From assembly GCA_028823175.1 (NCBI GenBank), contig JAPKBZ010000001.1, positions 96,350 through 160,349 on the forward strand: a DNA stretch of 64,000 nucleotides, given 5' to 3'. Of this stretch, positions 407-57,253 are shown piece after piece. Under the pieces are notes generated by a model. The model had not been told where the DNA came from. It saw only the letters and a list, made by a program, of their open reading frames with translations, and searched no databases. How positions within the stretch are numbered: the first letter of the stretch is position 1; the number at the start of each line of letters is the position of its first letter. The position numbers were made by a program, and so were the translations under genes. Origin of the DNA: Myxococcota bacterium (GTDB lineage Bacteria > Myxococcota_A > UBA9160 > UBA4427).

Positions 407-1603
407 TCATGCCTTGGCAGGCTTGGGCTCCCTGGGCATCCCGAGGCCGCGCTCCGAAATGATATTTTTTTGGATCTGGGCTGTTCCTCCGCCAATAATG
501 AGGCCGAGGGAGAAGAACGAGTGAGCCTGCCAGTAGCCAAGGTCTCGTTCGTAGGGCGTGTGGTCGTAAAGCGCTCCGAGTTCGCCCATTACGTCGATCG
601 CCAGGGAGGAGATGTCGAAATTCAGCTGGCAATTTCTAAGCTTGGTCACGAGGCCAGCCACTCCGGGCGCTTCGTCCCTCAGGCTACATGTAACCATCCG
701 CATCGCGTGGAATTTCATCGCCATGGATCGCGCTTGGAGTTGCATGAGACGATCCCTGAATACCGGGCTCGCCATGGCAGAAACGCCGTTGCAGGTTTCT
801 CTCTCCATTAGACGCATCAGCTTTATCATTGTCCCCTCGCTATTCGCGTTGAGACTATTTCGCTCATGCTTCAGGGTGGTATTTGCGATGCGCCAACCCT
901 CTCCTCGTTTACCCACGACGTTGACTTGGGGCACTCGGACATCGGTAAAGAAGACCTGGTTAAATGAATTTTCGCCCAAATCTCCCGACATGGTTCGAAG
1001 CGGTTGCACCTCGATGCCAGGGGTGTCCATGGGGAGCAGGATGTAGCTGATACCCGAGTGCTTGGGTGCATCGGGTTCTGTGCGTACGAGGATGAAGATC
1101 ATCTGAGATCTGTCCGCCGTACTTGTCCAAATTTTCTGGCCACTGATGAGAAAATCGTCTCCATCCTCCTTCGCAGAAGTCTGGAGGCTGGCAAGATCGC
1201 TACCCGAGCCCGGCTCGGAATAACCCTGGCACCACGTGATTTCGCCTCGCATGGTCGGGGAGATCCAGCGGAGTCGTTGTTCCTCGCTTCCGTGTTCGAG
1301 GAGTGTGGGAACGAGCATCGAAGGTCCCTGGCTCGACATTCCGCGAGGGATACCCGCGCGGTTGAATTCCTCATCCATGATCACGGTCTCGAGCAGGTCG
1401 GGTTCTGCGCCGTAGCCACCGTATTTCTTCGGGATGGTACGGGCCCAATATCCGTGCTCGATCTGCAGGCTCAGCCATTCGACCAGCCGCTGTCGTCGGC
1501 CACTCGAGAGGGGTGATTCGCTCTGGAGGGGCTTGTTCTCTTCGAGAAAGGATCGGACCTCCATCCGAAACTCTTCGTATTTCTGTCCGTATGATAGATC
1601 CAT
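407..1603 (-). CDS. acyl-CoA dehydrogenase
   Basis: 398 aa. ACAD hallmarks include 'WCQGYSEPGSGSDLASLQTSA', 'ISGQKIWTSTA' and a C-terminal 'GGTAQIQKNIISERGLG'. Confidence 0.9.
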   Translation of the reverse strand: MDLSYGQKYEEFRMEVRSFLEENKPLQSESPLSSGRRQRLVEWLSLQIEHGYWARTIPKKYGGYGAEPDLLETVIMDEEFNRAGIPRGMSSQGPSMLVPTLLEHGSEEQRLRWISPTMRGEITWCQGYSEPGSGSDLASLQTSAKEDGDDFLISGQKIWTSTADRSQMIFILVRTEPDAPKHSGISYILLPMDTPGIEVQPLRTMSGDLGENSFNQVFFTDVRVPQVNVVGKRGEGWRIANTTLKHERNSLNANSEGTMIKLMRLMERETCNGVSAMASPVFRDRLMQLQARSMAMKFHAMRMVTCSLRDEAPGVAGLVTKLRNCQLNFDISSLAIDVMGELGALYDHTPYERDLGYWQAHSFFSLGLIIGGGTAQIQKNIISERGLGMPREPKPAKA

Positions 1604-1665
1604 GCGTTTCCTTTCACGTGTTACATGTGCTGGACGTCGTGCGCCTCACGAGGCAAGGGTCCAGT

Positions 1666-2457
1666 CTATTTGCGTTCGCCAGACTTCGGAGGGTCGACAG
1701 GGCCGCCTGCGAAACACTGGGCGATGCTCATCCATTCTTTAGCGACTTGGCCGCCGACTTCGAGGGCGGTATCCCCGACATTTCTCCCCTGGGTCACGAC
1801 GTGGCAAAACTCCGCCGCGCTTCCTCTGACGTAGTCGGTTTCACTCGGATCGTTCCATTCCCAAATTTCGCCTGATGGGGCAACGAGGCGCACATAGGGG
1901 GGAGGGCCCGGGGTCTCACGTTTCCGGTTGATAAAAGTCCAGCCGAAAGTCCGTATTCCTATGGCGGCGACATTTTTGATTCGGTCGTTGTAGCTACGCT
2001 GCGCGCCCTTGAGGTCGTAGACCTCCTGGCCGTGGGCCCAGGTTTCCATGTATCGGGCGGTGGTGAACATACGGACGCCCATATCGGGACCGAACCAGGG
2101 CAGGCGCTTTTTTGGATTCGACTCTCCCAATTCCGTCGCCATCAGGCGGCAGGTTGTTAGCCATCGCTCGAGGAGTTCGTCCGGGGGTATTTCGCCGAAC
2201 TCGCTTCGCGCAATCTGGGCGTTGGTCATGCCCTTGCCAATGGAGCCGATCAAGGCATCACGTTTGGCAATAAAGGGCTCCTCACCCTCGAGCGCTGTCA
2301 GGGAGACCAGGTCGAAATAGTGAAGGTGGGCCACCACATCCCAGGGCGTCCAGCTCATGAAGCCGGTCGGGCGATCCCAGTCTTCTGGGTCCAGGCTCAG
2401 CAGGAAGGCGTGAAGCTCTTCGACTTCGGCGAGGAGGTCAGCACTTTCTTGTAGCAT
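1666..2457 (-). CDS. DinB/MDMPI_N-superfamily protein (TIGR03084-like)
   Basis: 263 aa. The N-terminal 'WDRPTGFMSWTPWDVVAHLHYFD' resembles the mycothiol maleylpyruvate isomerase N-terminal metal-binding fold. The family name is recalled from memory. Confidence 0.6.
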   Translation of the reverse strand: MLQESADLLAEVEELHAFLLSLDPEDWDRPTGFMSWTPWDVVAHLHYFDLVSLTALEGEEPFIAKRDALIGSIGKGMTNAQIARSEFGEIPPDELLERWLTTCRLMATELGESNPKKRLPWFGPDMGVRMFTTARYMETWAHGQEVYDLKGAQRSYNDRIKNVAAIGIRTFGWTFINRKRETPGPPPYVRLVAPSGEIWEWNDPSETDYVRGSAAEFCHVVTQGRNVGDTALEVGGQVAKEWMSIAQCFAGGPVDPPKSGERK

Positions 2458-17989: not shown

Positions 17990-19615
17990 GTGAATAGAGT
18001 GCTGCTCCCGTCTGCGGGATCTCTGCTGGTGCTGGTGGTCTTTTTGCTCGGCTTTCCCGGGTGGACCGTTCTCGCTATCGCCGACGAATCGCCTGAGTTT
18101 TGTTCCACGCTCGCCGGAGTGAACCGGGGTGAGGTCGATACTCGGGAATTTCCGGAACTGGCAGGGCATGTTCGCGTCATTGAGACGCTTCTCGATTCGT
18201 CGCCCGACGAGATCCGGAACGATCTCACAACGCTCCGCGATACCTTTGCGGCCTGGCTGAATGCAGTGGACGGCGAGGTCCCCATGAGCCAGACCTTCGC
18301 GATCCTCCGCGACCCAGAACTGGCGGGAGTTCAGGGCCGTATCGCGGATTATATTGCCGAGGAGTGCGGGCTCCGACTTGGGGACGGTCGTTATAACGTG
18401 GGGAGCTTGGCGTCGAGGGAAGGGCGCTGTCCGGCTTGGCCGAGCGTGGGTAATCCCCTGACTTTCAATCACTTCCCCAATCTCCCGGACATATCAGGGG
18501 GCAATTATTTCGCCCAACGGTATTGGGTAGGAAAGGCGGAAGATGCGCCGCCGGGCATGTTTCCTGTGGAGCCGGGTGGTCGGGTGAAAATACGCGGCCA
18601 GTATCCGAGGGCTCGGTATTTTGCGTTCCACCCCAACGACGAAGATCTGAATAACCTTCGAACTCTGCGCGATATTGATCTCGATCCCGATGAGGGGAGT
18701 ATCAATCCCTTCCGAGAAGTTCCCAAGAAAGATGTGCCCAACTATTACACGGCTTGGCTCGTTTTCGATCAGCCCCCGATCGACCCCGCCCCCAATACCT
18801 ATTATGTGGGCGCCCGTAAAAGTGGTATTCGCCCGACTCGTTGGGTCTGGAATATGCTTCGCCTCTATGCGTCGGACCTTGGAGATGGACCGAACTCGGG
18901 TGGGGTCCCGCTTCCGGCTCTGACTATCTATGGAGCAGACGGCAGCGAGAGCCAACATTTCGAAGAGTGCGAACCCTTCCAGCCGGGCGAGATGCACGCC
19001 GAGACAGATATCCTCTTCCCGGTTCTCCCCATCGCGGATCATAGGGCTGTCTACCCGGCGGCATGGAGCACTTCTTCGAATTTCGACAGCCCCTCGGACA
19101 CGCTTGCCAATGCCGACGTTCAATACCTGGCCACTTTCTTCAGTCGCCGACACGGCGATATCTTTATCGTACGAGCAAAAAATCTCAGGACAGCCGATTC
19201 ACGCGAAGGTCAACCCGTGAGTTCGCCAGGGATGGACATCCGACTTTTCACACTCTGCACCTACAATATCTGGTCTGGTAGCGCGCAGGATTGCATGCTC
19301 GAGCAGGAACTTAAAGAAGATGAAGAAGGCTTCTATACCCTTGTGATTTCCGATCAAACTCATAAGCCGGATAATCTTGAAGGGGTCGACGCTTCGTGGA
19401 TCGATTGGGGACCCTACCTGGACGGCCAATTGACTTACCGCATGGTCTACCGTGAAAATCCCTTTGCCCGACGAATCGCCTTTGCGCTCAATGGCGGCTT
19501 CGTCCCCCGGGAGCTTCGGGACTATATCCCCCGCTCGGCACCCTGTAGCCGTGCCCGCTTTGAAGAGGCGGGTTGGAAGGGTTGCTTCGAGGATGCCGGC
19601 CTCGAAGCCCGGTAG
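17990..19615 (+). CDS. hypothetical secreted protein (no family recognised)
   Basis: 541 aa. The GTG start follows GGAGG, and the N-terminal hydrophobic signal is 'LLVLVVFLLGFPGWTVLAIA'. It lies 19 bp after the SDR, and the long ORF has gene-like composition. Confidence 0.6.
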   Translation: MNRVLLPSAGSLLVLVVFLLGFPGWTVLAIADESPEFCSTLAGVNRGEVDTREFPELAGHVRVIETLLDSSPDEIRNDLTTLRDTFAAWLNAVDGEVPMSQTFAILRDPELAGVQGRIADYIAEECGLRLGDGRYNVGSLASREGRCPAWPSVGNPLTFNHFPNLPDISGGNYFAQRYWVGKAEDAPPGMFPVEPGGRVKIRGQYPRARYFAFHPNDEDLNNLRTLRDIDLDPDEGSINPFREVPKKDVPNYYTAWLVFDQPPIDPAPNTYYVGARKSGIRPTRWVWNMLRLYASDLGDGPNSGGVPLPALTIYGADGSESQHFEECEPFQPGEMHAETDILFPVLPIADHRAVYPAAWSTSSNFDSPSDTLANADVQYLATFFSRRHGDIFIVRAKNLRTADSREGQPVSSPGMDIRLFTLCTYNIWSGSAQDCMLEQELKEDEEGFYTLVISDQTHKPDNLEGVDASWIDWGPYLDGQLTYRMVYRENPFARRIAFALNGGFVPRELRDYIPRSAPCSRARFEEAGWKGCFEDAGLEAR

Positions 19616-19621
19616 CGCAGA

Positions 19622-21469
19622 TCAATCGGCTTTGGCATCGAAGTGGGCTGGGGGGAAGTCTGCGCATCGCCCCTGGGCCCAGTCGAGATATTGCGGCCGC
19701 TGATAAGTCGGTTCATCCTTGATATTCAGATAGACCAGCCAGCAGACGTCTTCTTCGCTTTGCGCACGTTCGTCGCTGGCTGCCGCCATCAGAATCCCTT
19801 CGAGGAAAACCTCATCTTTTGACATGCGGACGCCGCCGCCGGCGGCCGTATCGAGAATCAGGAATTTGTCGCCACCGTCGGCGAGATTCCAGACCATCCA
19901 ATCGGGCAAGTCGCCTCCCCGCCCCCGGCCAGGGTTTCCCGTATAGGCGAACTCTGCCCAATACGATTGCATCGTTCGCGAGAGGGCAAGCCTGCCTTTT
20001 GCGTTTGACTTGGTGAAGATCAAGCCAGCCAGGCCATCTTGGGGGAAAATTCCGGTTAGGAAAGTAGTTTCGAGACCATGGGCGGCGCCTACGAGGAGCG
20101 AAAAGTCACCCCATACACTGTCGGGTTCTTCATCCCAGTCCCAGCGATAGGCGAAGGCCTGTCCGCCAGCCGCGCGGGTCCAGCGACTCGGATCGTCGGC
20201 ACCCCGTGCCTTCCACCCCTTGGCTCGATATTCGGAGAAGTAACGGTAGCGATCTTTGTCTTTTGGCCGATAGAAAGCGCCGAAGTAGTCGTTGACGAGT
20301 TCGGGGCTGAGAGCCAGCCACAAATTGTTTTCATCGCGGTTGGTACCCGCGATCAGGGGAACTGGATGAATTTCTCCGTGGCGATACGCTGCAGCGATCC
20401 CGTCGGCGGGGATGACGGTTCCGTCCTGGATCATGATGGGTGCGCCGTGACTCTCACTCTCCGCGTAATATCCCATGACGAGTTCCTCTGGGCTTCGAGA
20501 GCGGAGAAAATTGGCGAGGTCTGCGGGGGGCATGGTCTGGGTTTTCTGCAAAGCAGCCTGTCGGGAATCAGCCAACTCGGATTCCTGGAGCCAATAGACC
20601 AGCATATCGCCGCTGGTTGCCGAGCCGGTGCGCCGCGATGTCGAGGTCGCAATTTGGCTGGCTTCTTCAAGTCCGACGCTGTTCGTATACCCGCTCTGGG
20701 CGATCGCACCTTGAAAGAGACCAGTGGCCAGAGGAGAAACCATCAAGGCCAGAGTGTTCTGCCCGCCCGCGGATTCTCCGAAAATGCTCACTCTGTTGGG
20801 ATCACCTCCGAATGCCGCGATATTGGCCTGGACCCATCGGAGCAGTTCTAGTTGGTCGAGCAGGCCGTAATTTCCCGAGCGATCGAGCGCGTCGTCGCCT
20901 TCACTCCAGAGCGCGGGTTGGTAGAACCAGCCCAGGCCCCCAAGCCGATAATTGAAGCTGATCATTACGAGATCAAAGCGCTCAGCCATTTGGCTGAAGT
21001 CGTAGGAGCCGCCGTGGCCGGTCGTGTTGCCACCGCCATGAATCCAGACCATGACGGGCAGGCCGTCGTCCGGGACTTTTTCGGGCGCCCAGATATTCAG
21101 GAACAGGCAATCCTCGGATCCGAAGACTTTTCCGATTGACTCGGCTGGGGCGCCGCCCAGCCAGGATCCTCGCTGCAGGCATGCACTCCCAATTTCAGTG
21201 GCTTCACGCGAGCCCTGCCATGAATTGGCCGGGCGAGGGGACCGCCAACGAAGGTCGCCCACTGGGGGCGCCGCGTAGGGGACGCCCGCCCAAGCCAGAA
21301 CGCCACTGGAGGCACGGTAACCGATGAGCTTTCCCTGGGGCAGAACGCGCTCGCTGGCAGGGTCTATTTTGGGTGGCTTCTGATTTCGAGGGCCGCAGGC
21401 TGGCAATAAGACCGTTAGGGCACTGAGGGCGAGCAAGAGCAAGAGCTTGGGCATGGCAATGGCTTTCAT
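19622..21469 (-). CDS. carboxylesterase/lipase type B family lipoprotein
   Basis: 615 aa with lipobox 'VLLPAC', oxyanion 'VWIHGGGN' and nucleophile elbow 'FGESAGG'. Confidence 0.9.
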   Translation of the reverse strand: MKAIAMPKLLLLLALSALTVLLPACGPRNQKPPKIDPASERVLPQGKLIGYRASSGVLAWAGVPYAAPPVGDLRWRSPRPANSWQGSREATEIGSACLQRGSWLGGAPAESIGKVFGSEDCLFLNIWAPEKVPDDGLPVMVWIHGGGNTTGHGGSYDFSQMAERFDLVMISFNYRLGGLGWFYQPALWSEGDDALDRSGNYGLLDQLELLRWVQANIAAFGGDPNRVSIFGESAGGQNTLALMVSPLATGLFQGAIAQSGYTNSVGLEEASQIATSTSRRTGSATSGDMLVYWLQESELADSRQAALQKTQTMPPADLANFLRSRSPEELVMGYYAESESHGAPIMIQDGTVIPADGIAAAYRHGEIHPVPLIAGTNRDENNLWLALSPELVNDYFGAFYRPKDKDRYRYFSEYRAKGWKARGADDPSRWTRAAGGQAFAYRWDWDEEPDSVWGDFSLLVGAAHGLETTFLTGIFPQDGLAGLIFTKSNAKGRLALSRTMQSYWAEFAYTGNPGRGRGGDLPDWMVWNLADGGDKFLILDTAAGGGVRMSKDEVFLEGILMAAASDERAQSEEDVCWLVYLNIKDEPTYQRPQYLDWAQGRCADFPPAHFDAKAD

Positions 21470-47573: not shown

Positions 47574-47655
47574 TTGGCGGTTGGCGGTTGGCGTTGGCGG
47601 TTGGCGGTTGGCATTGGCGGTTGGTGTGGGCGGTTGGCATGGGCAGTTGGGTCAG
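47574..47655. repeat. degenerate G/T-rich tandem repeat (TTGGCGG-type units; CCGCCAA on the transcribed strand)
   Basis: Read directly: GGCGGTTGGCGGTTGGCGTT GGCGGTTGGCGGTTGGCATT GGCGGTTGGTGTG GGCGGTTGGCATG GGCAGTTGGGTCA. It spans from the sulfatase stop (47652) toward the amidohydrolase RBS. Confidence 0.85.
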
Positions 47656-49667
47656 GGGCGCACGATTTCGAAATCGGTCTCAAAGCGGTCGAAGAGACCG
47701 CCGAAGGTCGCGAGGGCCAGGGGGTTGCCCGATAGATCGATCCGGCCGGCCGCCAGCAGAGTAGTCACTCCGATTTCGCCCGCGAGCAGTCCCAGGAAAT
47801 CCGGGCGCGTCATCTCCAGAGCGATATCCGGGTCGGGGTGTGGAGTCCCCTCCCGGGCATGCAGGACCCCGTTCTCCACGTCTACCACCCAGAGCTCTTT
47901 CCTGTCGCTGAAACGGATCTGCAGCGCGAGTTCTTCTTCCGCGGCTTCGAGACCCTTGAGCCGCACCGCCATGAAATCGAAGACCATGGCGGAATCCATG
48001 CCCGCGACGACGTCGGAGTTGGCGGTGTTCACCCGGCCGCTGACGATGACGCCCTCCCTGAGTTCCCGAGCTGCGCTGAGGTAGAAATTGCGCCAGGGGC
48101 CTGACTCGGCCTGGTAACCCAATTGCTCTAGGGCGTCGGCCTGGAGCCAGCGTGCACGCGCGTTGTCGGGCTCGGCGAAGACCAGGTGGTTGATGACCTC
48201 GGCGACCCAGCGATATTCGCCCCGGGCCAGGGCCGTTTCGCCCTTCTCGATCATGGCGTTGGCGCCGCCCATCCACTCGACGTAGTGGGCGCCGCTCTCG
48301 GTCGGGGGCAACGGGCTCAGGTTCGCGGGGTTCCCGTCGAACCAGCCGAGATAGTACTGGTAGGTGGCCTTGGAGTTGTGGCGCACGGTGCCGTAGTAGT
48401 CGCGGTTGTACCATTGCTGGCCGAGGCTGTCGGGGAGTTCGATGATTTCGGCGATCTCCTGGGGCGTCAGGCCCTGGTTGGCCAGGCGCAGGGTTTGGTC
48501 GTGGACGTAGCCATAGAGGTCTCGCTGGTTGGTGAGATATTCGACGGCCTCTTCGCGGCCCCAGCGTGGCCAATGGTGGCTTCCGAAAACGACTTCCAGA
48601 TCGTCGCCGAAGAGCTCGATGGCCTGCTCGAGCCAGGCCGCCCAATCCTTGCCGCTGCGCACCTGAGCCCCGCGCAGGGTATAGAGATTGTGAAAGACCG
48701 CGTTCGCCTCCTCTGCGGGGCAGAAGGCCTTCCATTGGGGGAGATAGAACATCATCTCGGCGGGCGCCTCGGCGTTGGGGGTGTACATAAAGATCATCTC
48801 GACGCCGTCAAGGGTAATGGGGGTGGGCGTCTCGCCGATGATGTCGGTGGGGGCAATCATGGAGACGCGTCCGCGCGACGTCGTCTTCCCCAAGCCCGCG
48901 TCGACCCGGCCCTGAGGTCCCTCGTCGAGGAGCCCACCAAACATGTACTCCGCTCGCCGGGTCATCACGTTGCCCGCCAGCACGTTCTCGCTGACCGCGT
49001 GATGGCTGAATCCCTCGGGCGCCAGGATTCGCACCCGGCCCGCAGCGACGTCCTCGGGAGTCGTCACTCCGCGGACACCGCCGAAATGGTCGGCATGGCT
49101 ATGGGTGTAGATCACCGCCACCACCGGACGCTCTCCCAACTCGGCATTGACCAAGGCCAGGGCCGCCGCAGCGGCTTCGACGGTGATCAGCGGATCCACC
49201 ACGATCCAGCCCGTCTCGCCGCGAATAAAGGTGATGTTAGAGAGGTCGTAGCCCCTGACCTGATAGATGCCGTCGACGACTTCGAAGAGTCCGTGGATAT
49301 TATTGAGTTTGGCCTGGCGCCAGAGGCTGGGGTTGACGGTCTCTGGGGCGTCGCCCTCGATGAAATCGTAGGCCGCCATATTCCAGACCTCGCGGCCATC
49401 CTCGTCCTGAATGACGAGGTTATCGGGCCCCGCGATGAAACCCCGGCGGGCTCGCTCGAAATCCGATTCGTCGCCGAAGGGAAGGCTCTCGAGGACCGCC
49501 GTGTTGGCGGCTGCCGTGAACTGGCTTGCCGGCTTGATCTCGGGATTCAGGCTCCCGGCTGGCGCTGGCGAAGGGGCGGGAGATTCCGCGTTACACGCGA
49601 GCCATAGGGGAAACAAGAAAATGGCGAGAGCAACACGATATCGAGACAAGTCAGATCCCCTGTTCAT
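47652..49667 (-). CDS. alkyl/aryl-sulfatase (MBL fold + dimerisation + SCP2-like C-terminal), lipoprotein
   Basis: 671 aa with lipobox 'LWLAC' and MBL motif 'YTHSHADHFGG'. The C-terminal 'LLAGEIGVTTLLAAGRIDLSGNPLAL' is SCP2-like, as in SdsA1/BDS1-type sulfatases. Confidence 0.88.
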   Translation of the reverse strand: MNRGSDLSRYRVALAIFLFPLWLACNAESPAPSPAPAGSLNPEIKPASQFTAAANTAVLESLPFGDESDFERARRGFIAGPDNLVIQDEDGREVWNMAAYDFIEGDAPETVNPSLWRQAKLNNIHGLFEVVDGIYQVRGYDLSNITFIRGETGWIVVDPLITVEAAAAALALVNAELGERPVVAVIYTHSHADHFGGVRGVTTPEDVAAGRVRILAPEGFSHHAVSENVLAGNVMTRRAEYMFGGLLDEGPQGRVDAGLGKTTSRGRVSMIAPTDIIGETPTPITLDGVEMIFMYTPNAEAPAEMMFYLPQWKAFCPAEEANAVFHNLYTLRGAQVRSGKDWAAWLEQAIELFGDDLEVVFGSHHWPRWGREEAVEYLTNQRDLYGYVHDQTLRLANQGLTPQEIAEIIELPDSLGQQWYNRDYYGTVRHNSKATYQYYLGWFDGNPANLSPLPPTESGAHYVEWMGGANAMIEKGETALARGEYRWVAEVINHLVFAEPDNARARWLQADALEQLGYQAESGPWRNFYLSAARELREGVIVSGRVNTANSDVVAGMDSAMVFDFMAVRLKGLEAAEEELALQIRFSDRKELWVVDVENGVLHAREGTPHPDPDIALEMTRPDFLGLLAGEIGVTTLLAAGRIDLSGNPLALATFGGLFDRFETDFEIVRP

Positions 49668-50319: not shown

Positions 50320-51204
50320 TCAGGGTGACCAGGCTCGCCAGCCAGATTCCGGGTCGCCCTGGAGGGCCCCGGCGGCCACGCGTTCGAGGCCTGGGGATCC
50401 CAGAGCCGCGCTGGCCACTCGGGCCGCCCATTGGCCCTCGGCTTCGGACTCGACCTTGTTGATCAGAATCGTTCGCCGGGCACCCCGGGGCGATCCCTTG
50501 CCTCCCCCCGCTGGCGAGGCCAGGAGTGCGCCGAGAGCCTCGGGGCTGAGAGTCGCGTCGGGGGAAAGGCCAGTGAGGGCGCAGACCCGTTCGGGCCGGT
50601 GGGCGATCTCTGCGATGGGCGCCGAGAGGGCATCGATCCCCGCCACCGTGATCAGGTGGTGGGTCTCCGGAGGGATCACGGGTTCGTGTTCCGCGGGTGC
50701 CTTGACCGGGAGCCGGCGGGAGCCGTCGGCCTCCACCACGACCCAGTCGACATTCGGGTGGGCAAGGATCTGACCCGGAATTTCCGGACCCACGCCTAGG
50801 GCATGGCGCTCTTCGACCCGTCCGACCACCAGCAGGCTTCCCGCTCTATCCACGAGGCTACTTTCCCAGCCGACGTCCTCGACACACGACACGCGGTGGG
50901 CGAGGCGGGCCTGGCTCGCGAAGATTCGCGTGGTCGTCGTCAGCACTGTGCGTCCGGGAAGCGCGCGAGCCAGGGCGAAGAGAAGGGTGCTTTTTCCGCC
51001 TCCGCCCACGACCGCGATTAAACCCGGTGGGTTTCCCAGCTCGAGAGCTTCGACGAGACTCAGTTCGGATCTCTCCTCGAGGTCTCTACTTATTCGCTGC
51101 ACCGTGCCTCCAGTTCGTGCCCACTCTGCTGGGCAAAAGATACACCGGATCGCGTAGCAATCGGGGGCGGCTCGGGCGGGCTCTCTGGGGACGGTGGCCA
51201 GCAA
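50320..51204 (-). CDS. yqeC: selenium-dependent hydroxylase accessory protein YqeC family
   Basis: P-loop 'IAVVGGGGKSTLLFALA', 'VVVEADGSRRLPVKAPAEHEPVIP', 'HRPERV', 'GGGKGSP...ILINKVE'. The likely true start is GTG 51102 (GGAGG upstream), giving about 260 aa. Confidence 0.75.
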   Translation of the reverse strand: MLATVPREPARAAPDCYAIRCIFCPAEWARTGGTVQRISRDLEERSELSLVEALELGNPPGLIAVVGGGGKSTLLFALARALPGRTVLTTTTRIFASQARLAHRVSCVEDVGWESSLVDRAGSLLVVGRVEERHALGVGPEIPGQILAHPNVDWVVVEADGSRRLPVKAPAEHEPVIPPETHHLITVAGIDALSAPIAEIAHRPERVCALTGLSPDATLSPEALGALLASPAGGGKGSPRGARRTILINKVESEAEGQWAARVASAALGSPGLERVAAGALQGDPESGWRAWSP

Positions 51205-51248: not shown

Positions 51249-51625
51249 ATGAGTTTGATTCTCTACGGGGCGCCGCTTTCTCCCTTTGTCCGCAAGGTTG
51301 AAGTTCTCTTGCGAGAGAAGGGGGCCGAGTTCGAGAGCGAGCCGGTGAATATCATGCCCATGCCCGACTGGTTCAAGGAGATTAGTCCCGCCAAGCGAAT
51401 CCCCGTGTTGCGCGATCTCTCGGTGGGGCGCGAGGGCGCGAGGGCCCGAAGGGAACGATCGCCGACTCGTCGGCGATCTGCGCTTTTGCCGAACGGAAAT
51501 TTCCCGAGCCAGCCTTCTACCCTGCAGATGCGTTCGAACTCGGCCAAGCTACGTGGTACGAAGAGTGGGCGGACACCGAACTCGCAGGAAAGATCGTCAA
51601 GGAGAGCGTCGATCTAAACGCCTAG
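51249..51625 (+). pseudogene. glutathione S-transferase pseudogene (8-bp tandem duplication frameshift; C-terminal domain truncated)
   Basis: The N-terminus 'MSLILYGAPLSPFVRKVEVLLREKGAEFESEPV...RIPVLRD' is GST/thioredoxin-like. GCGCGAGG occurs twice in tandem (51428-51435, 51436-51443). Removing one copy restores '...GTIADSSAICAFAERKFPEPAFYPADAFELGQATWYEEWADTEL...', which stops at 51623-51625, about 90 aa short of a full GST. Confidence 0.7.
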
Positions 51626-51665: not shown

Positions 51666-52418
51666 ATGCTTTGGGTTTCCTGGCTGCTGGTTCTAGCTTG
51701 CTACGGGTGGTTTGTCGGCGGCGCCATGGGCAATGGCCCGCTGATTGGCCACGACGAATTCATTCACGCTCGCGTGCCCTGGCGGGTGCTTGGGTTGCTC
51801 TGGTTGGGTGGCGGTCTGGGTCTCGCGGTTCTGGCGAAGCGCCGAACTCTTCTTTCCGCCACCAGCTTTGGCCTGCAGGTGCTGCTGGTGGGATTCTTTT
51901 CCTCCTACTTCCTCCAGGATAGTTTTCTGCCCGACCATGCAGTGGCCCTGAAGGTGGGGGAGGCCTTTCCGAGCTATGCCCTCCTCGACCAGGATGAGAT
52001 CGTTCATTCGAGTACTTCGAACGAGCCCCGGGAGCCGGCGCTCTACATCTTTTATCGCGGCGATTGGTGACCTTTCTGCCGAACCGAGCTGGTCCAGCTC
52101 GAAAGCTACTACGACGCGATTCAGAGCGAAGGGGTCGAGCTCTACGCCGTGAGTGTCGATCCCCCAGCAACTTCCCGTCGCCTGCGTGACCGCCTGGGCG
52201 CGCGCTTCACTTTCCTGTCGGATCCAGGAGGCCTACTCCTGGATGCCTTGAATATCCGTCATCGGGGTGCGAACGAGGGCAGCGATATCGCCTTCCCCAC
52301 CGCGATTCTCGTGGACCGATGGGGGTCCGCACGTTGGATCTACGAATCCGAAACCTATCGCCAACGCGCCGAACCCGAAACGATCTTCGCCGCGATCCGA
52401 GCGATGAACACGCGTTGA
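51666..52418 (+). CDS. candidate selenoprotein: membrane-anchored PRX-like2 (AhpC/TSA-redoxin) thiol:disulfide oxidoreductase with U-x-x-C
   Basis: Track ORFs 51666..52070 and 52149..52418 share one frame, and the only stop between them is TGA 52068-52070. Read-through gives 'ALYIFYRGDW-U-PFCRTELVQLESYYDAIQSEGVELYAVSVDPP...FLSDPGG...PTAILVD'. The TGA therefore sits exactly at the first Cys of WCPxC. A SECIS-like hairpin lies downstream. The N-terminus has 3 predicted TM helices. Confidence 0.7.
52072..52105 (+). promoter_or_regulatory. putative bacterial SECIS element
   Basis: CUUUC[UGCCGAAC]CGAGCUG-GUC-CAGCUCG-AAAG. There is a 7-bp upper stem (52085-52091/52095-52101), a lower stem CUUUC/GAAAG (52072-52076/52101-52105, alternative pairing of G52101), and an apical GGUC at 52091-52094, i.e. 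+24..+27 from the U of UGA. Confidence 0.55.
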
Positions 52419-52425
52419 TTTCGGC

Positions 52426-52575
52426 CTAGGCGAAGGGCGAGCGAGACGCCGCCCGGGGCGCTGCAGAGTCGGGTGCCGAGCGGTTCGCCCGCTGGATGAT
52501 GACGAGGCAGAGCATCGCGACCAAGATCTCGCCAGCCCCGGCGAACTGTTCCAGGAGAGGCATCAGCGCGTTCAT
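52426..52575 (-). CDS. possible 49-aa single-TM peptide, translationally coupled to the upstream Zn-ribbon ORF
   Basis: ATG 52575-52573 overlaps the upstream TGA (ATGA), with a perfect AGGAGG 7 nt upstream. It reads MNALMPLLEQFAGAGEILVAMLCLVIIQRANRS.... The rest of track ORF 52426..52854 is Arg-rich noise. Confidence 0.4.
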   Translation of the reverse strand: MNALMPLLEQFAGAGEILVAMLCLVIIQRANRSAPDSAAPRAASRSPFA

Positions 52576-52898
52576 CGTCGTTCCTCCTGGAAGGATTCGG
52601 CTAGCCGCTCGCGACCCATGATCTCGACGATGAAGCCCTCGGAGCCCAGGGTGAGGGCCCCGGATGGCTTCCGCCGCTCTCCGGTGAGGGGGGTGAGGGT
52701 CGTGAGGGACTGGGAGCCCGCTGAATTCAGCCCCCTCGATGCCTCGAGACAGTCGCCGCAGACCACTGCGTCGGCGCTGAGCAAGGCGAATTGGCCCACG
52801 GGGAGCCCGTACCGGGCGTAGGCTTCGAAGGGCGGTACCCCACAATAATCGCATTTTTCCTGGGCATCGCGCCCCGCCCCCAAAATCTGGATCTCCAT
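52572..52898 (-). CDS. hypothetical CxxC...CxxC (zinc-ribbon-like) protein
   Basis: 108 aa with 'KCDYCG...(26 aa)...VCGDCLE'. The ATG is preceded by GGGAGAG, with an in-frame TAA 6 codons upstream. No family was recognised. Confidence 0.45.
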   Translation of the reverse strand: MEIQILGAGRDAQEKCDYCGVPPFEAYARYGLPVGQFALLSADAVVCGDCLEASRGLNSAGSQSLTTLTPLTGERRKPSGALTLGSEGFIVEIMGRERLAESFQEERR

Positions 52899-53178: not shown

Positions 53179-55599
53179 TTAGCGGCTGGGCGGGGCGACG
53201 CTCTGATTTCGGTAGACGAGGCTCATGAGTGCGGGGGAAACCAGGATATCGATGAGGAAGGCATTGGCGATGGTAATCCCCGTCAGCAGCCCGAAATAAT
53301 AGAGATTGCTCATCTCGGCGAAGATGAAGATGAAGAAGCCAAGCGAGAGCACTACCGAGGTTACGAAGAGGGCGCGCCCGGTGGTCCTCAGGGTTTCCCG
53401 GTTGGCGGCGTGGACGTCGCCACTCTTGAGAAAAGAGCGCCTGAAGTTGTACATGTAGTGGATGGTGTCGTCTACAGCGAGGCCGATCGCGATTCCGCCG
53501 AGCATCAAGGTGAAGACATCCATGATAATGCCGGTCCACCCCATGATTCCCAATGTGATGATGATGGGGGCGAGGTTGGGAAGCATGCTGACGATTCCCG
53601 TTCGCAGAGATCCGATCAGGAGAATCATGAGTGGGGTGATGATCAGAAGAGCGAGAATATAGCTTCTGGTCATGCTTCTGATCACCGCTCTGAGGGTGGC
53701 GCTCATGATGGGAATAAATCCCGTGGTGCTGACGCGAACATCTGGGCCAAGCCTCTCCTGGAAGAGGGCCAGGGTGGATGTGATATAGGGTTGATATTCG
53801 ATGGGGTCGACATAGGGGACGCGAATCGACACTCGCGCCATGCTGAATAGAGAATCCACCACGGGTTCGAGATCATCGGCCCCGCTATTTCCGAAGAGGA
53901 GCATTTCCTGAGCGATCAGTTCCCGGCTTTGGGGAATCGCATAATGCATCGGGTTATTTTCGTTCAGGGCCTGGCTGATCTCTTTGGTGATGGTGGCAAT
54001 AGAAATGGCTTTGCCCATTTTGACTCCCTCCATGGGCGGGAGCTGGGCCAGTTCGGCTTCAACTGAGTCGAGGGCCGTCATGAACTCGACGGACTGAACA
54101 CCATTTTCGGTGCCGCTATCGGCCAGAATTTCGATGACCATGGATCCGTTCATTTGCTCGTCGAAGAGTTGGGTAGCCAGGCGAAAAGAGTGTGATTCCG
54201 GCAGCCATTTCATGATGTCATGACCGAAACGGATCTGGGATGCCCCGAGGAGGCTGATGGCAACGACTGCCAGGGTCAGGAAGACAGCGGCTTTGGCATG
54301 GCGAATTGAAAAATCGCCTGTGGCAACGAGGATCTCTCCGATCCAGTCCGCTTCCTGCCCGACCTCGGTGTGATTTTCCTGGGTTTTTCGCGGGCGAATG
54401 GGCAAGGCGGCGAGCAGGGCGGGCAATAGGACCAAGCAATAGATGAGCGCCAGCAGGATGCCGATTGGGGCAAATATGCCGATGGCCATAACCGGTGCTA
54501 TCTCGGCGGAGATAAAGGAGAAGAGACCTCCGGCGGTGGTCAGGCTCGTCATACAAATCGGCAGACCGGTGTGCTTCAAGCTGAGCGCAATCGCCTCTTC
54601 CCGCTCGATCCCCCGATCGAGGTATTGGTAGAAGATGCTCAGGATGTGAACCGCTGCTCCGATGCCGACGGCGAGCAGAAGGGAAGGGAGAACTTGAGTG
54701 GGCGCGCTGAGAAACTCGCCGGCAATCGCCATACTCCCAATGGTTCCCGAGACCGACGGCAGCACGACGGCCAGGGGGAGTATCACGCCAGATATTCGTC
54801 GGAATAACACGAAGAGAAGCAGGGCAATGATCAAGATCATGAGGGCGACGAAACGAGCCATGTTGGTCTGGATCGCCTCGACGAGATCACTTTGGAGAGC
54901 GGGCTGCCCGCTGACCTGTATTCTGAATCCTTCCGCATCGAACCGGCGCGCAATCTCCCGCACTGCGACAACGACTTCGGTGTTCTCGGCCCCCGATAAG
55001 AAATCAGCTTGCTCATCGACCAGATCGTCAGCGAACCCTTCCTCGTAGTTGAATTCATCACTCACGGAGTAAGCGACGGTTTCGATACTCACGGTTGCCA
55101 GCCGGCCATCCCGTGAGATGAGAAGGTTTTCGTAGAGGGGGTTGCCCGTGACGTAGTTCCGAAGCCTCTCCCAGTCCTCTGGGTTCTCAGGCCAATCTTC
55201 GAGCAGGTCTTCGACGATGAGCTCGTCGGCTTCGCCCCGAGTCACCCGGGCATTGATCAGGCTGCGGACTTCCTCGAGATAGGGCACCTGCTCTTCGAGA
55301 GATTCGTGGAGTTCGCCCAGGCGGGCGAGAAAGTCGGGCGCCAGAACGTCGGGTCCCTCGATGGCCATGATCAGAACTTCGCCGCGCCCGAATTGATCGC
55401 GGAACTCGTCATAGAGTTCTTTGGCGGGAGCACCCTCGCGTAGAAAGGATTCCGTGGAGGTATCGATAATGACGTTCGGTGCCTGGGAAGACAGCGAAGC
55501 CGCGAACCCGAGGGTGAGCGCGATGATCACCCAGCGGCGACGGGAGATGAAATAGCCGAACGACTCGAAGCGAGACTCAATTCGATCTCTTATGTCCAA
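53179..55599 (-). CDS. MMPL/RND-superfamily exporter (COG1033-type, two SSD-like 6-TM bundles)
   Basis: 806 aa. It has an N-terminal TM, a large periplasmic loop and two blocks of 5-6 TM ('MARFVALMILIIALLLFVLF...', 'ILALLIITPLMILLIGSL...'), as in HpnN/MMPL-like transporters. Confidence 0.85.
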   Translation of the reverse strand: MDIRDRIESRFESFGYFISRRRWVIIALTLGFAASLSSQAPNVIIDTSTESFLREGAPAKELYDEFRDQFGRGEVLIMAIEGPDVLAPDFLARLGELHESLEEQVPYLEEVRSLINARVTRGEADELIVEDLLEDWPENPEDWERLRNYVTGNPLYENLLISRDGRLATVSIETVAYSVSDEFNYEEGFADDLVDEQADFLSGAENTEVVVAVREIARRFDAEGFRIQVSGQPALQSDLVEAIQTNMARFVALMILIIALLLFVLFRRISGVILPLAVVLPSVSGTIGSMAIAGEFLSAPTQVLPSLLLAVGIGAAVHILSIFYQYLDRGIEREEAIALSLKHTGLPICMTSLTTAGGLFSFISAEIAPVMAIGIFAPIGILLALIYCLVLLPALLAALPIRPRKTQENHTEVGQEADWIGEILVATGDFSIRHAKAAVFLTLAVVAISLLGASQIRFGHDIMKWLPESHSFRLATQLFDEQMNGSMVIEILADSGTENGVQSVEFMTALDSVEAELAQLPPMEGVKMGKAISIATITKEISQALNENNPMHYAIPQSRELIAQEMLLFGNSGADDLEPVVDSLFSMARVSIRVPYVDPIEYQPYITSTLALFQERLGPDVRVSTTGFIPIMSATLRAVIRSMTRSYILALLIITPLMILLIGSLRTGIVSMLPNLAPIIITLGIMGWTGIIMDVFTLMLGGIAIGLAVDDTIHYMYNFRRSFLKSGDVHAANRETLRTTGRALFVTSVVLSLGFFIFIFAEMSNLYYFGLLTGITIANAFLIDILVSPALMSLVYRNQSVAPPSR

Positions 55600-55822
55600 A
55601 GGATTCTCTCGGCTCTCATATCGGGGTTCGGGGCTTTGAACAAGCGCGACTGATAATAGGTCTACATTGTATGTGCTTCTTAGTATCGCTGCCCTCGGAC
55701 TCGCCTTCCCCTATGGTGTGAGAGCGAAAGAGGTTGTCGTCCATTCTTATTGGGCCGCAGTAAAAAATCGCAGACACGACCCCGGCCAGCGAGTGAACTC
55801 AAACGGAGAGGGAAACCGTCTC

Positions 55823-57253
55823 ATGCGTTACCATTTCAAATATCCCGCAAGCCCTTCGAATAATCGGCGTCGCTTGGGGGGCGCTATTCGGATATCGAGC
55901 CTGCTCTTGGTCGTGATCGGAGCGGTGCTGAGCCTATTGCTGGCTCTGTGGTTGTTCTCTCCATCGGTTCGCAAGGCGACCACCCTGGGCGTCGCCGAGA
56001 TTGCCGGGAACGTGGCAGAGGGCTACATGGCCGACACTCGACCCGTTGAGGTGATTCAGATAGCGGATATCGTTTTCCAGGCGACAGGGATAGCCAATAC
56101 CCAGTTGATCCCGACATCAGAGGGCTATGTCGTCTTCGATACAGGCCTCTCGATCCAGGCAGCCAAGCAAAAGAGGCTTCTGGAGGAAGCCGCCGGTATA
56201 GGCCCGATTACCGAGATCATCCTCAGCCACTCTCACCAGGACCATGTCGGGGGTGTTTCCTTCTGGCTCGAAGACGACAGCGAGATCATTGCTCATGCCG
56301 AGTTCGAAGAAGAGCAACGCTATTTGAAAGAACTGGAGCCCTATCTCTGGACTCGAAATAGGCGACTCTTTCCCTGGATGCCCGAAGAGCCCGTTTCAGG
56401 GGGGCCTCTAGAGTTTGGGAAGATAGAGCCGACGCTTAGAGTGGACGGAGAAGAGAGCCTGACCTTCGAGCGGGGCGGCATCCGGTTCGAGGTGATTCCG
56501 ACGCCGGGCGCAGAAGGTGCCGACAACCTTTGCCTCTGGCTTCCCGATCAGAAAATTTTGCTCTCGGGCGATTTCTTTGGCCCCATCTTTCCCCAGTTTC
56601 CGAATATCTTCACCATGCGCGGCGAGAAGACAAGGAAACCCATCGAGTATATCCGCTCCCTCGATCGTCTTATCGCCCTCGAACCTGAAATCGTGATCCC
56701 GTCGCATCTCTCGCCGGCTTACGGGAGAGAAGAGATCAAGGCAGCGATGACGAGAATGCGCGATGCGGTGCAGTTCGTTCACGATGCGACGGTGGAGGGA
56801 ATGAATTCGGGCCGGACTGTCTATGAACTGATGGAGGAGATCGAACTTCCGCCAGAGCTCGAACTTAGCCAGATCCACGGAAAGGTCTCTTGGGGGGTCA
56901 AGAGTATCTGGGAGTACTACGCGACATGGTTTCACCATGATTCGACGACCGAACTCTACGCGGTGCCCGCCCGTTCCCTCTATGGTGAGCTCGCTGAACT
57001 CGCGGGCCCAGAGAAGTTGGTGGCGCGGGGGCGCGCCTATCTGACGGAAGGGAAGCCGGTGGAGAGCCTCCACTTCTCCGAAATTGTGCTCGAGGCGGAT
57101 CCGAACTCCCGCTCCGCCCTGGAATTGCATCGAGACGCTCTCGAGGAGTTGCTCGCCCGGGCGAGGAAGGGTCACCAGAATGCTTTTGAGCTCGGGTGGC
57201 TTGGATCCCGTCTGGGGGAGATCCGGGCTCGTTTGGAACTCGCGGCTCCCTAG
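55823..57253 (+). CDS. membrane-anchored MBL-fold hydrolase with alkyl-sulfatase-type dimerisation domain
   Basis: ATG 55823 follows GGAGAGGGA. The TM is 'SSLLLVVIGAVLSLLLALWLF', the MBL motif is 'ILSHSHQDHVGG', and the C-terminus is TPR-like/alkyl-sulfatase dimerisation-like. The track ORF starts at 55667. Confidence 0.8.
   Translation: MRYHFKYPASPSNNRRRLGGAIRISSLLLVVIGAVLSLLLALWLFSPSVRKATTLGVAEIAGNVAEGYMADTRPVEVIQIADIVFQATGIANTQLIPTSEGYVVFDTGLSIQAAKQKRLLEEAAGIGPITEIILSHSHQDHVGGVSFWLEDDSEIIAHAEFEEEQRYLKELEPYLWTRNRRLFPWMPEEPVSGGPLEFGKIEPTLRVDGEESLTFERGGIRFEVIPTPGAEGADNLCLWLPDQKILLSGDFFGPIFPQFPNIFTMRGEKTRKPIEYIRSLDRLIALEPEIVIPSHLSPAYGREEIKAAMTRMRDAVQFVHDATVEGMNSGRTVYELMEEIELPPELELSQIHGKVSWGVKSIWEYYATWFHHDSTTELYAVPARSLYGELAELAGPEKLVARGRAYLTEGKPVESLHFSEIVLEADPNSRSALELHRDALEELLARARKGHQNAFELGWLGSRLGEIRARLELAAP

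Follow-up and report, generated by a model that had tools for sequence, protein, structure and literature searches.

A predicted membrane-anchored UxxC selenoprotein of the peroxiredoxin-like kind, annotated as two proteins in a Myxococcota genome

Peroxiredoxin-like selenoproteins and the gene at 51666-52418

Peroxiredoxin (Prx)-like selenoproteins with a UxxC motif (U denoting selenocysteine, Sec) have been on record since 2004-2008 and carry the label 'predicted with high confidence' in a 2026 review (PMC13188914, PMC2398784), which gives WP_010940744.1 as type member and also lists a 'Redoxin family protein PF08534 UxxC' and a 'Peroxiredoxin-like cd02970 UxxS' (PMC13188914). They include the 'Prx-like protein' of the Sargasso Sea survey and 'Prx-like 1' (pfam00578, UxxC, 225 genes) of the Global Ocean Sampling (GOS) data. 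Here we analyse a gene at 51666-52418 of a 64,000-nucleotide stretch of Myxococcota DNA (the window; contig JAPKBZ010000001.1 of assembly GCA_028823175.1) that very probably encodes, on the evidence of sequence comparison, a single 250-residue membrane-anchored Prx-like selenoprotein in which UGA is read as Sec. Like Prx-like 1 genes, it combines PF00578 with UxxC (U135-P-F-C138), has Cys homologues, and carries a small G-containing hairpin after the UGA; unlike them, its clade possesses a three-helix module and an IHARxPW motif, a difference drawn from published descriptions of Prx-like 1. The initial annotation of the locus had named UxxC redoxins as a known class of selenoprotein, rightly so for the Prx-like kind (PMC1088965, PMC2398784, PMC13188914). 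The word 'transmembrane' occurs nowhere in PMC2398784 or PMC13188914, and no description of a transmembrane (TM) bacterial Prx-like selenoprotein was found in the literature searched, of which coverage was incomplete; the present gene may well already be counted among the metagenomic fragments of this kind.

Translation of 51666-52418 on the forward strand yields a single frame whose sole internal stop is TGA 52068-52070, as the initial annotation had observed for two open reading frames (ORFs) there. The read-through coding sequence consists of 134 codons, the UGA as predicted Sec codon 135, another 115 codons (116 had been counted originally) and a TGA stop, making 250 residues; the three N-terminal helices and AhpC/TSA domain that had been proposed for this product are upheld by translation, by Pfam and by an AlphaFold2 model. 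GenBank divides the gene into MDE0884006.1 (134 residues, hypothetical protein) and MDE0884007.1 (109 residues, redoxin domain-containing protein) and likewise divides its closest full-length relative (MDG2334493.1 and MDG2334494.1, of JAQWRT01); every public source checked breaks such genes up, into one 'hypothetical protein' and one fragment named 'redoxin domain-containing protein' or 'peroxiredoxin'. Of the 51 ORFs called in the window, 24 end in TGA, and UGA has therefore not been reassigned genome-wide. A scan of the window found no other credible gene interrupted by a single TGA, the remaining candidates being antisense to called genes or ordinary gene ends.

In the mechanism that we propose, translation would not take UGA 52068-52070 as a stop; a hairpin 17-34 nt past it would act as a bacterial selenocysteine insertion sequence (bSECIS) and recruit SelB with Sec-tRNA(Sec), and Sec would be inserted at residue 135. 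By sequence and model, the product has three N-terminal TM helices followed by a peroxiredoxin-fold domain with a U-P-F-C active site in place of the T-x-x-C/U of peroxiredoxins. It would more likely be a membrane-tethered oxidoreductase of the thiol:disulfide type than a canonical peroxiredoxin, and general knowledge of CxxC and UxxC proteins suggests that it may cycle through a Sec135-Cys138 selenenylsulfide.

Recurrence of the UGA, selection beyond it and the downstream hairpin

The genetics of recoding are established by comparison among homologous sequences. A search over 5.8 billion proteins returned about 22 full-length Cys proteins of about 237 residues (P0001-P0022, 'peroxiredoxin' at JGI) with the near-invariant motif FYRGDW-C-PFCRTEL; they resemble the window protein in architecture (three helices, AhpC/TSA domain) and in FYRGDW-x-PFCRTEL, and differ from it in having TGY for TGA and no hairpin. 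In an alignment with 28 homologues, the window TGA falls on the first Cys of FYRGDW-C-PFC, where the initial annotation had placed it, 'first' being correct in the sense of the thioredoxin CxxC motif. A DNA pattern for F-Y-R-G-D-W-TGA-P-F-C, run on metagenome stretches and species-representative genomes, matched 111 of the former and 54 of the latter, or 165 other loci, in hosts that include Myxococcota, Acidobacteriota, Binatia, Gemmatimonadota and Chloroflexota; Cys at this column is found in the roughly 22 more distant homologues. At all pattern loci the frame stays open and homologous past the TGA to the limit of the contig, typically for about 105-140 codons. About 45 of the TGA loci align to the window gene over its full length, hydrophobic N-terminus included, the closest being in a Myxococcota metagenome-assembled genome (MAG; L158, JAQWRT010000045; 90% identity), and the same pattern also retrieves short soluble UxxC forms that are about 30-37% identical over the domain.

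A search of the 134-residue N-terminal ORF, without word index, against 1.84 billion cluster representatives gave 39 matches, 34 of which end in ...[FL][YF]RGxW, directly before the Sec column; Cys occurs at that column in none of the true homologues among the 39. These two results indicate that Sec, as predicted for the window protein, is fixed at this position throughout its clade, whose members fall into 34 or more clusters (50% identity) from Myxococcota, Acidobacteriota, Binatia and other groups; the Cys forms are confined to a sister group that is further removed (40-46% identity). Just ahead of the Trp that precedes Sec, the residue is variable (GHW, GGW, GFW, GRW and GDW, seen in P0034, P0045, P0048, P0057, P0060, P0061 and P0067), and the DNA pattern demanded Asp there; the count of the Sec clade is therefore too low. 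P0028, one of the two closest N-terminal relatives, ends exactly at ...YRGDW, and its contig (L001) has TGA at the column, followed by a frame that stays open and conserved; a hairpin occurs there at the matching offset, built from other stem sequence. P0023 was considered as a close Cys-containing relative and rejected, its contig entering the Illumina adapter CGACGCTCTTCCGATCT exactly at that codon. This public NCBI contig (GCA_003359175.1, PVMK01041207.1; L002:4031-4088) ends in the adapter followed by an inverted repeat, and the adapter gives P0023 an artificial 'Cys' codon and a false C-terminus at the Sec column.

The exact N-terminal ORF is present on 17 contigs from independent sequencing runs. 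Three population loci were examined, with 0-6 base differences from the window in about 4.4 kb, and all three keep the TGA. The only two differences within the gene among these copies, at gene positions 580 and 609 (window 52245 and 52274) in L175 and L176, are non-synonymous (A194T, N203K), lie 3' of the TGA, and affect sites that also vary between relatives.

Selection has been maintained on the codons beyond the UGA. Nei-Gojobori ratios of non-synonymous to synonymous substitution (dN/dS) over the 115 codons after the TGA are 0.11 (against L158), 0.13 (L110), 0.16 (L095), 0.09 (L052 and L129) and 0.21 (L156), equal to or below those of the 134 codons 5' of the TGA; relaxed selection past the TGA is ruled out. 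The gene immediately upstream presents a different picture. Between yqeC and the selenoprotein gene lies a glutathione S-transferase (GST) remnant (51249-51625, forward strand), which comparison with L158 shows to be the pseudogene that it had been taken for: the frame is shifted by an 8-bp tandem duplication, GGGCGCGA, at about 51426-51441, and a deletion at about 51592, between GAAAG-(G/A)TCG microhomologies, has removed about 315 bp relative to L158. The 122-residue remnant is called likewise on the independent contigs L174-L176. The GST copy of L158 itself seems to be frameshifted too, at an A-run.

The candidate bSECIS is a hairpin at 52085-52101 on the forward strand, CGAGCUG-GUC-CAGCUCG, with a 7-bp stem and an apical GUC loop 21 nt after the UGA. 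Folding returns it as both the minimum free energy (MFE) and the centroid structure (-10.6 kcal/mol), in agreement with the initial annotation. A lower stem CUUUC/GAAAG, which had also been proposed, does not stand: it would use G52101, which already pairs in the upper stem; folding does not predict it, and beyond the nearest relatives it is not conserved. Published bSECIS criteria are an apical loop of 3-9 nt, an upper stem of 4-16 bp, a G in the first two loop positions, a UGA-loop spacing of 16-37 nt, and an MFE of -7.5 kcal/mol or lower (PMC13188914, Fig. 2), and the hairpin lies within every one of these limits (loop GUC, 7 bp, 21 nt, and -9.1 kcal/mol for the hairpin alone). In a strict, no-bulge implementation of these criteria, 65% of 130 unique Sec-form sequences and 77% of the window's clade pass; the corresponding figures are 6.9% for a null set of 18,456 codon positions and zero for six Cys forms. 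Local sequence folds with an average energy of -10.9 kcal/mol in 128 Sec forms and of -5.3 kcal/mol in the six Cys forms, and the hairpin is absent from all six Cys-form DNAs checked.

The in-frame hairpin of Escherichia coli fdhF is likewise located just past its UGA. The correspondence drawn in the initial annotation, an apical GGUC at +22..+25 in fdhF and at +24..+27 in the window, is correct; more than 5,400 E. coli genomes carry the fdhF sequence concerned, with 100% identity, beneath their fdhF annotation. In fdhF, a 4-nt loop caps an apical stem of 3 bp, a U is bulged out, and the lower stem, long and interrupted, extends back as far as the UGA. The window hairpin instead closes a 3-nt GUC loop with seven uninterrupted base pairs and has neither a bulged U nor a lower stem that is conserved. 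Among the determinants of SelB recognition are the bulged U and the G and U of the loop.

Among TGA homologues the hairpin is kept with compensatory changes. In a gap-free alignment (A2) of 77 distinct sequences, a nine-pair helix is 82.5% paired, versus 24.5-33.3% in slid registers, and the observed covariation score was reached by none of 500 shuffles. Pair 18-34 takes the forms C:G (38 sequences), G:C (23) and U:A (9), and pair 24-28 the forms G:C (42) and C:G (19). The third, synonymous base of the Leu codon at 22-24 goes with the base that opens codon 28-30: CUG is found with CAG 42:0, and GAG only after CUC (Fisher p = 1.6e-9, without phylogenetic correction). In the same way, the wobble base of codon 16-18 follows the base that opens codon 34-36 (NNC/G.., NNG/C.., NNU/A..). 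Such tracking of pairing partners by synonymous sites is, among these comparative data, the clearest sign of selection on the RNA. The peptide at the hairpin is TEL-[VG]-[QE]-L in Sec forms versus TEL-xx-[LIM]-N in Cys forms, a difference that makes the protein sequence itself appear adapted to carry the stem. For method, the lesson is that single-sequence folding statistics fail for SECIS elements, and that covariation between synonymous sites and their partner bases is decisive instead.

Several observations weigh against Sec insertion at this UGA. The 66-nt segment that contains the hairpin folds with z = -0.26 relative to shuffled sequences, which is not significant, and an equally good SECIS-like hairpin follows 3.0% of in-frame codon positions in the other genes of the window. 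In the centre of the stem, AGCU/AGCU does not vary and overlaps Glu-Leu and (Gln/Glu)-Leu codons; part of the pairing could result from constraint on the protein. The Cys-form control comprises six DNAs only, and the covariation statistics come from related sequences, uncorrected for phylogeny. Neither an Rfam search of the whole window at the gathering threshold nor a permissive scan of 52030-52150 matched the hairpin, a result to be expected given the diversity of bSECIS elements (PMC13188914). The authentic fdhF SECIS itself scores only z = -1.33, so the weak score of the window segment does not count against a SECIS. Taken alone, the hairpin is weak evidence; what supports the case is comparison among sequences, not the folding of a single one.

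Also to be counted on that side, a search that covered the 64-kb window and 0.9 Mb of DNA from related loci found neither selA, selB, selD nor tRNA-Sec. ARAGORN detected no tRNA in the window and two in the 0.9 Mb of loci, neither of them tRNA-Sec; tblastn with approximate E. coli SelD and SelA queries gave no match in the window or the related loci; and Pfam and NCBIfam models applied to 50 of the 51 window ORFs and the read-through protein identified no sel genes and no YqeB. The adjacent yqeC noted in the initial annotation is genuine (50320-51204, reverse strand; TIGR03172, 165.6 bits vs a cutoff of 73), but only YqeB and YqeC together mark the selenium-cofactor trait (PMC5029168), and YqeB is missing from the 64-kb window; adjacency to yqeC is therefore weak evidence for selenium use. 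The window encodes no molybdenum hydroxylase either.

That the gene is a pseudogene, a Cys-type membrane peroxiredoxin inactivated by a TGC-to-TGA nonsense mutation as the initial annotation cautioned, would fit the true decay of the GST gene beside it, by duplication and deletion, and the two ORFs reported by gene callers and GenBank. This explanation is nevertheless extremely improbable: the same TGA occupies the same column at 165 other loci in several phyla, 34 of the 39 library representatives end there, and TGA relatives diverge to about 30% protein identity and so do not represent one recent clonal lineage. A simple nonsense mutation is further excluded by dN/dS values of 0.09-0.21 past the TGA, by conservation of the hairpin with compensatory changes, and by the 17 contigs from independent runs, and the gene bears no other disabling lesion. 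It is highly improbable that the two publicly called ORFs are exactly two real products, a 134-residue membrane protein and a separately initiated redoxin fragment of 89-109 residues (starting, for example, at GTG 52149). The 26 codons between the TGA and GTG 52149 (PFCRTELVQLESYYDAIQSEGVELYA) are in frame and among the most conserved of the family; the first fragment would stop in the middle of a beta-strand and active-site turn, and the second would be without the CxxC motif and helix alpha-1 of the thioredoxin fold, whereas the Cys homologues are single 237-residue proteins.

Read-through of the UGA without selenium, by a near-cognate tRNA that inserts Cys or Trp in a lineage lacking Sec machinery, is compatible with the failure to find that machinery in the window or the 0.9 Mb of related loci and with the fact that a lone YqeC is no proof of selenium use (PMC5029168). 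It is very unlikely even so. In loop size, in G/U content and in spacing the hairpin conforms to the bSECIS consensus of the SelB type, and its loop resembles that of fdhF; the site is the redox-active Cys of a CxxC motif, a classic position of Sec/Cys exchange, in a family listed among selenoproteins (PMC1088965, PMC2398784). Insertion of Cys would need only TGY, without the cost of a stop codon, yet TGA is fixed clade-wide, and the hosts (Myxococcota; 'Deltaproteobacteria') belong to a lineage rich in selenoproteins (PMC5029168). Insertion of Sec at a recoded UGA thus stays the reading that we consider very probable.

Redox domain, membrane module and histidine kinase fusions

The AhpC/TSA (peroxiredoxin-fold) domain occupies residues 97-221 (51954-52328, forward strand), as located by Pfam and Foldseek. 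With Cys in place of the stop, the read-through protein matches AhpC-TSA (PF00578; 2.2e-19, 70 bits vs a cutoff of 26) and Redoxin (PF08534; 1.1e-13). The AlphaFold2 model, built on a 29-sequence alignment, shows three long helices and a thioredoxin fold of the Prx type (predicted local distance difference test score, pLDDT, 89.1; predicted TM-score, pTM, 0.80), with the near-invariant CPFC/UPFC motif (residues 135-138, 52068-52079) just before a helix at 137-147. The best Foldseek matches in the PDB are Bcp4, BcpB and AhpE (2cx3, 3hjp and 1xxu among BCP/PrxQ and AhpE structures), with target TM-scores of 0.84-0.90. In a HMMER alignment to BCP 2cx3, C138, the second Cys, coincides with the peroxidatic Cys; Sec135 takes the Thr/Ser position of the Prx motif PxxxTxxC, whose conserved Thr/Ser is absent; and the catalytic Arg is replaced by Pro in 'AFPTAILVD', of which A.PT..LVD is conserved in the clade. 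With Sec at the Thr/Ser position and Pro at that of Arg, the predicted protein is not a canonical peroxiredoxin and is best regarded as a thioredoxin-style UxxC redoxin on a Prx scaffold; BCP/PrxQ and AhpE differ further in being soluble, unlike the membrane-anchored window protein. CDD PRX_like2 (cd02970), the family named in the initial annotation, is a candidate assignment: the second Cys of its CxxC is the peroxidatic one and the Thr and Arg of the triad are absent, features that the window protein shows too.

No NCBIfam model reaches its cutoff on the protein, the best being ResA (36.1 bits vs 170) and StoA (23.2 vs 210). TlpA, ResA and StoA resemble it in having an N-terminal anchor and a CxxC domain of thioredoxin fold that probably faces outward; besides falling so far below cutoff, the window protein differs from them in having three helices, not one, and a fold nearer to Prx. 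Eukaryotic iodothyronine deiodinases have a Prx-like fold. They are membrane-anchored selenoenzymes as well (PMC11592359), and the likeness is an analogy of architecture only: their active-site position and motif are different, they have a single TM helix, and their SECIS is of the eukaryotic 3'-UTR (untranslated region) type.

The N-terminal membrane module (51669-51920, forward strand) places helices at residues 2-20, 39-58 and 62-85, according to AlphaFold2 and to hydropathy and charge across 20 complete clade members. Loop 1 contains the conserved IHARxPW and, in the model, a short helix at 29-34; a KRR loop joins helices 2 and 3; and no Pfam family matches the module. In the 20 complete unique members, the four-residue loop between helices 2 and 3 averages 2.8 K+R and no D+E, while loop 1 (1.1 K+R, 1.65 D+E) and the linker after helix 3 (0.35 K+R, 1.9 D+E) are both net acidic. 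By the positive-inside rule, a basic loop 2 flanked by acidic segments would place the redox domain on the outer side, and this distribution of charge slightly favours an orientation of the window protein in which that domain faces out of the cytoplasm. Among 60 distinct complete N-termini, charge counts give 36 with the C-terminus out, 12 with it in, seven ties and five in which only two helices were detected, the window's clade being nearly all C-out. The orientation is made uncertain by the window's own sequence, which ties in the crude count, and by homologues fused to histidine kinases, which need a cytoplasmic domain.

These fusions are found in Marinacidobacterales/Acidobacteriota (L145:876-2981, reverse strand; L167:706-2964, reverse; L119:4673-6805, forward), where the TM-SecPrx module again has TGA at this column and is extended in frame by 574-613 codons that run into a histidine kinase core; partial copies exist at L048:7524-9020 and L097:694-2007. 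By Pfam, L145 and L119 both have HisKA and HATPase_c, and L119 has GAF as well; L167 was assigned by sequence similarity alone. No additional hydrophobic segment separates the module from the kinase core, and the charge pattern of the fused proteins is reversed, predicting 'C-in'. Because the kinase core must be cytoplasmic, that prediction is correct, and the fusions serve as a control for the charge rule. Read through in the same way, they would be selenocysteine-containing sensor histidine kinases; no description of a selenocysteine histidine kinase was found in the literature searched, again with incomplete coverage. At another locus (L142, about 811-2100, forward strand, binned as Chloroflexota), the Prx domain of a TM-SecPrx gene stops after '...LLDALGI' and the frame, open for 292 codons past the TGA, passes into alpha/beta-hydrolase-like sequence. 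Either the assembly is chimeric here or the gene may truly be fused or truncated.

Genomic neighbourhood and significance

No neighbour is conserved across the clade (89 loci), so the selenoprotein gene appears to stand alone; a neighbour cluster present at 54 loci was rejected as an antisense shadow of the gene itself. A divergent yqeC lies upstream only in the seven closest loci (the window, L158, L143, L095, L130, L052 and L129), which are also the only ones to have an alkylsulfatase gene in common, and this arrangement could be a functional link or plain inherited synteny. Genes for alkylsulfatase-like metallo-beta-lactamases (Lactamase_B and Alkyl_sulf_dimr) flank the window locus at 47652-49667 (reverse strand) and 55667-57253 (forward), together with an MMPL/RND transporter gene (53179-55599). 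The former of the two also has Alkyl_sulf_C/SCP2, and its synteny with yqeC and the selenoprotein gene is kept by the closest relatives. On the other side, convergent with the selenoprotein gene, is an ORF of 108 residues (52572-52898, reverse strand) with zinc-ribbon-like cysteines (CDYCG...CGDC), without a Pfam or NCBIfam match and 76% conserved in L158, L058 and L081.

Elsewhere, the window encodes acyl-CoA dehydrogenases, enoyl-CoA hydratases, carboxylase subunits and AtuA, suited to catabolism of the lipid or terpene type, as well as MiaE and an alkaline phosphatase. At 17990-19621, a forward-strand ORF of 541 residues without a Pfam match lies opposite three same-frame reverse-strand ORFs, downstream of a carboxylesterase gene (19622-21469) and split only by TGA (19622, 19199 and 18494); these three show a similar coding signal from G+C content at third codon positions (GC3), and either strand may be the coding one.

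UxxC Prx-like selenoproteins are a kind already known, and one in a 'deltaproteobacterial' lineage will not surprise a specialist; the three-helix module and the kinase fusions were not found in the searchable literature, and we regard the architecture as modestly novel. Tentatively, we propose that these proteins may constitute an undescribed but widespread clade of membrane-embedded UxxC selenoproteins, mostly facing outward, with a sister subclade that would be cytoplasmic, fused to GAF-HisKA-HATPase_c and able to sense redox state through Sec. The value of the finding lies in the correction of a systematic mis-annotation and in the kinase-fusion lead. Since the gene is split in public sources and matched by no NCBIfam model, a family present in dozens of species-level genomes is invisible to selenoproteome counts, and a profile of the clade combined with a SECIS rule would remedy this. 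Placement of Sec in a membrane-tethered redox domain, in Myxococcota and in mostly uncultured lineages of soil and sea, would point to a wider use of Sec in thiol chemistry and, if confirmed, the fusions of TM-SecPrx with GAF and histidine kinase domains would add signalling proteins to the list of selenoproteins.

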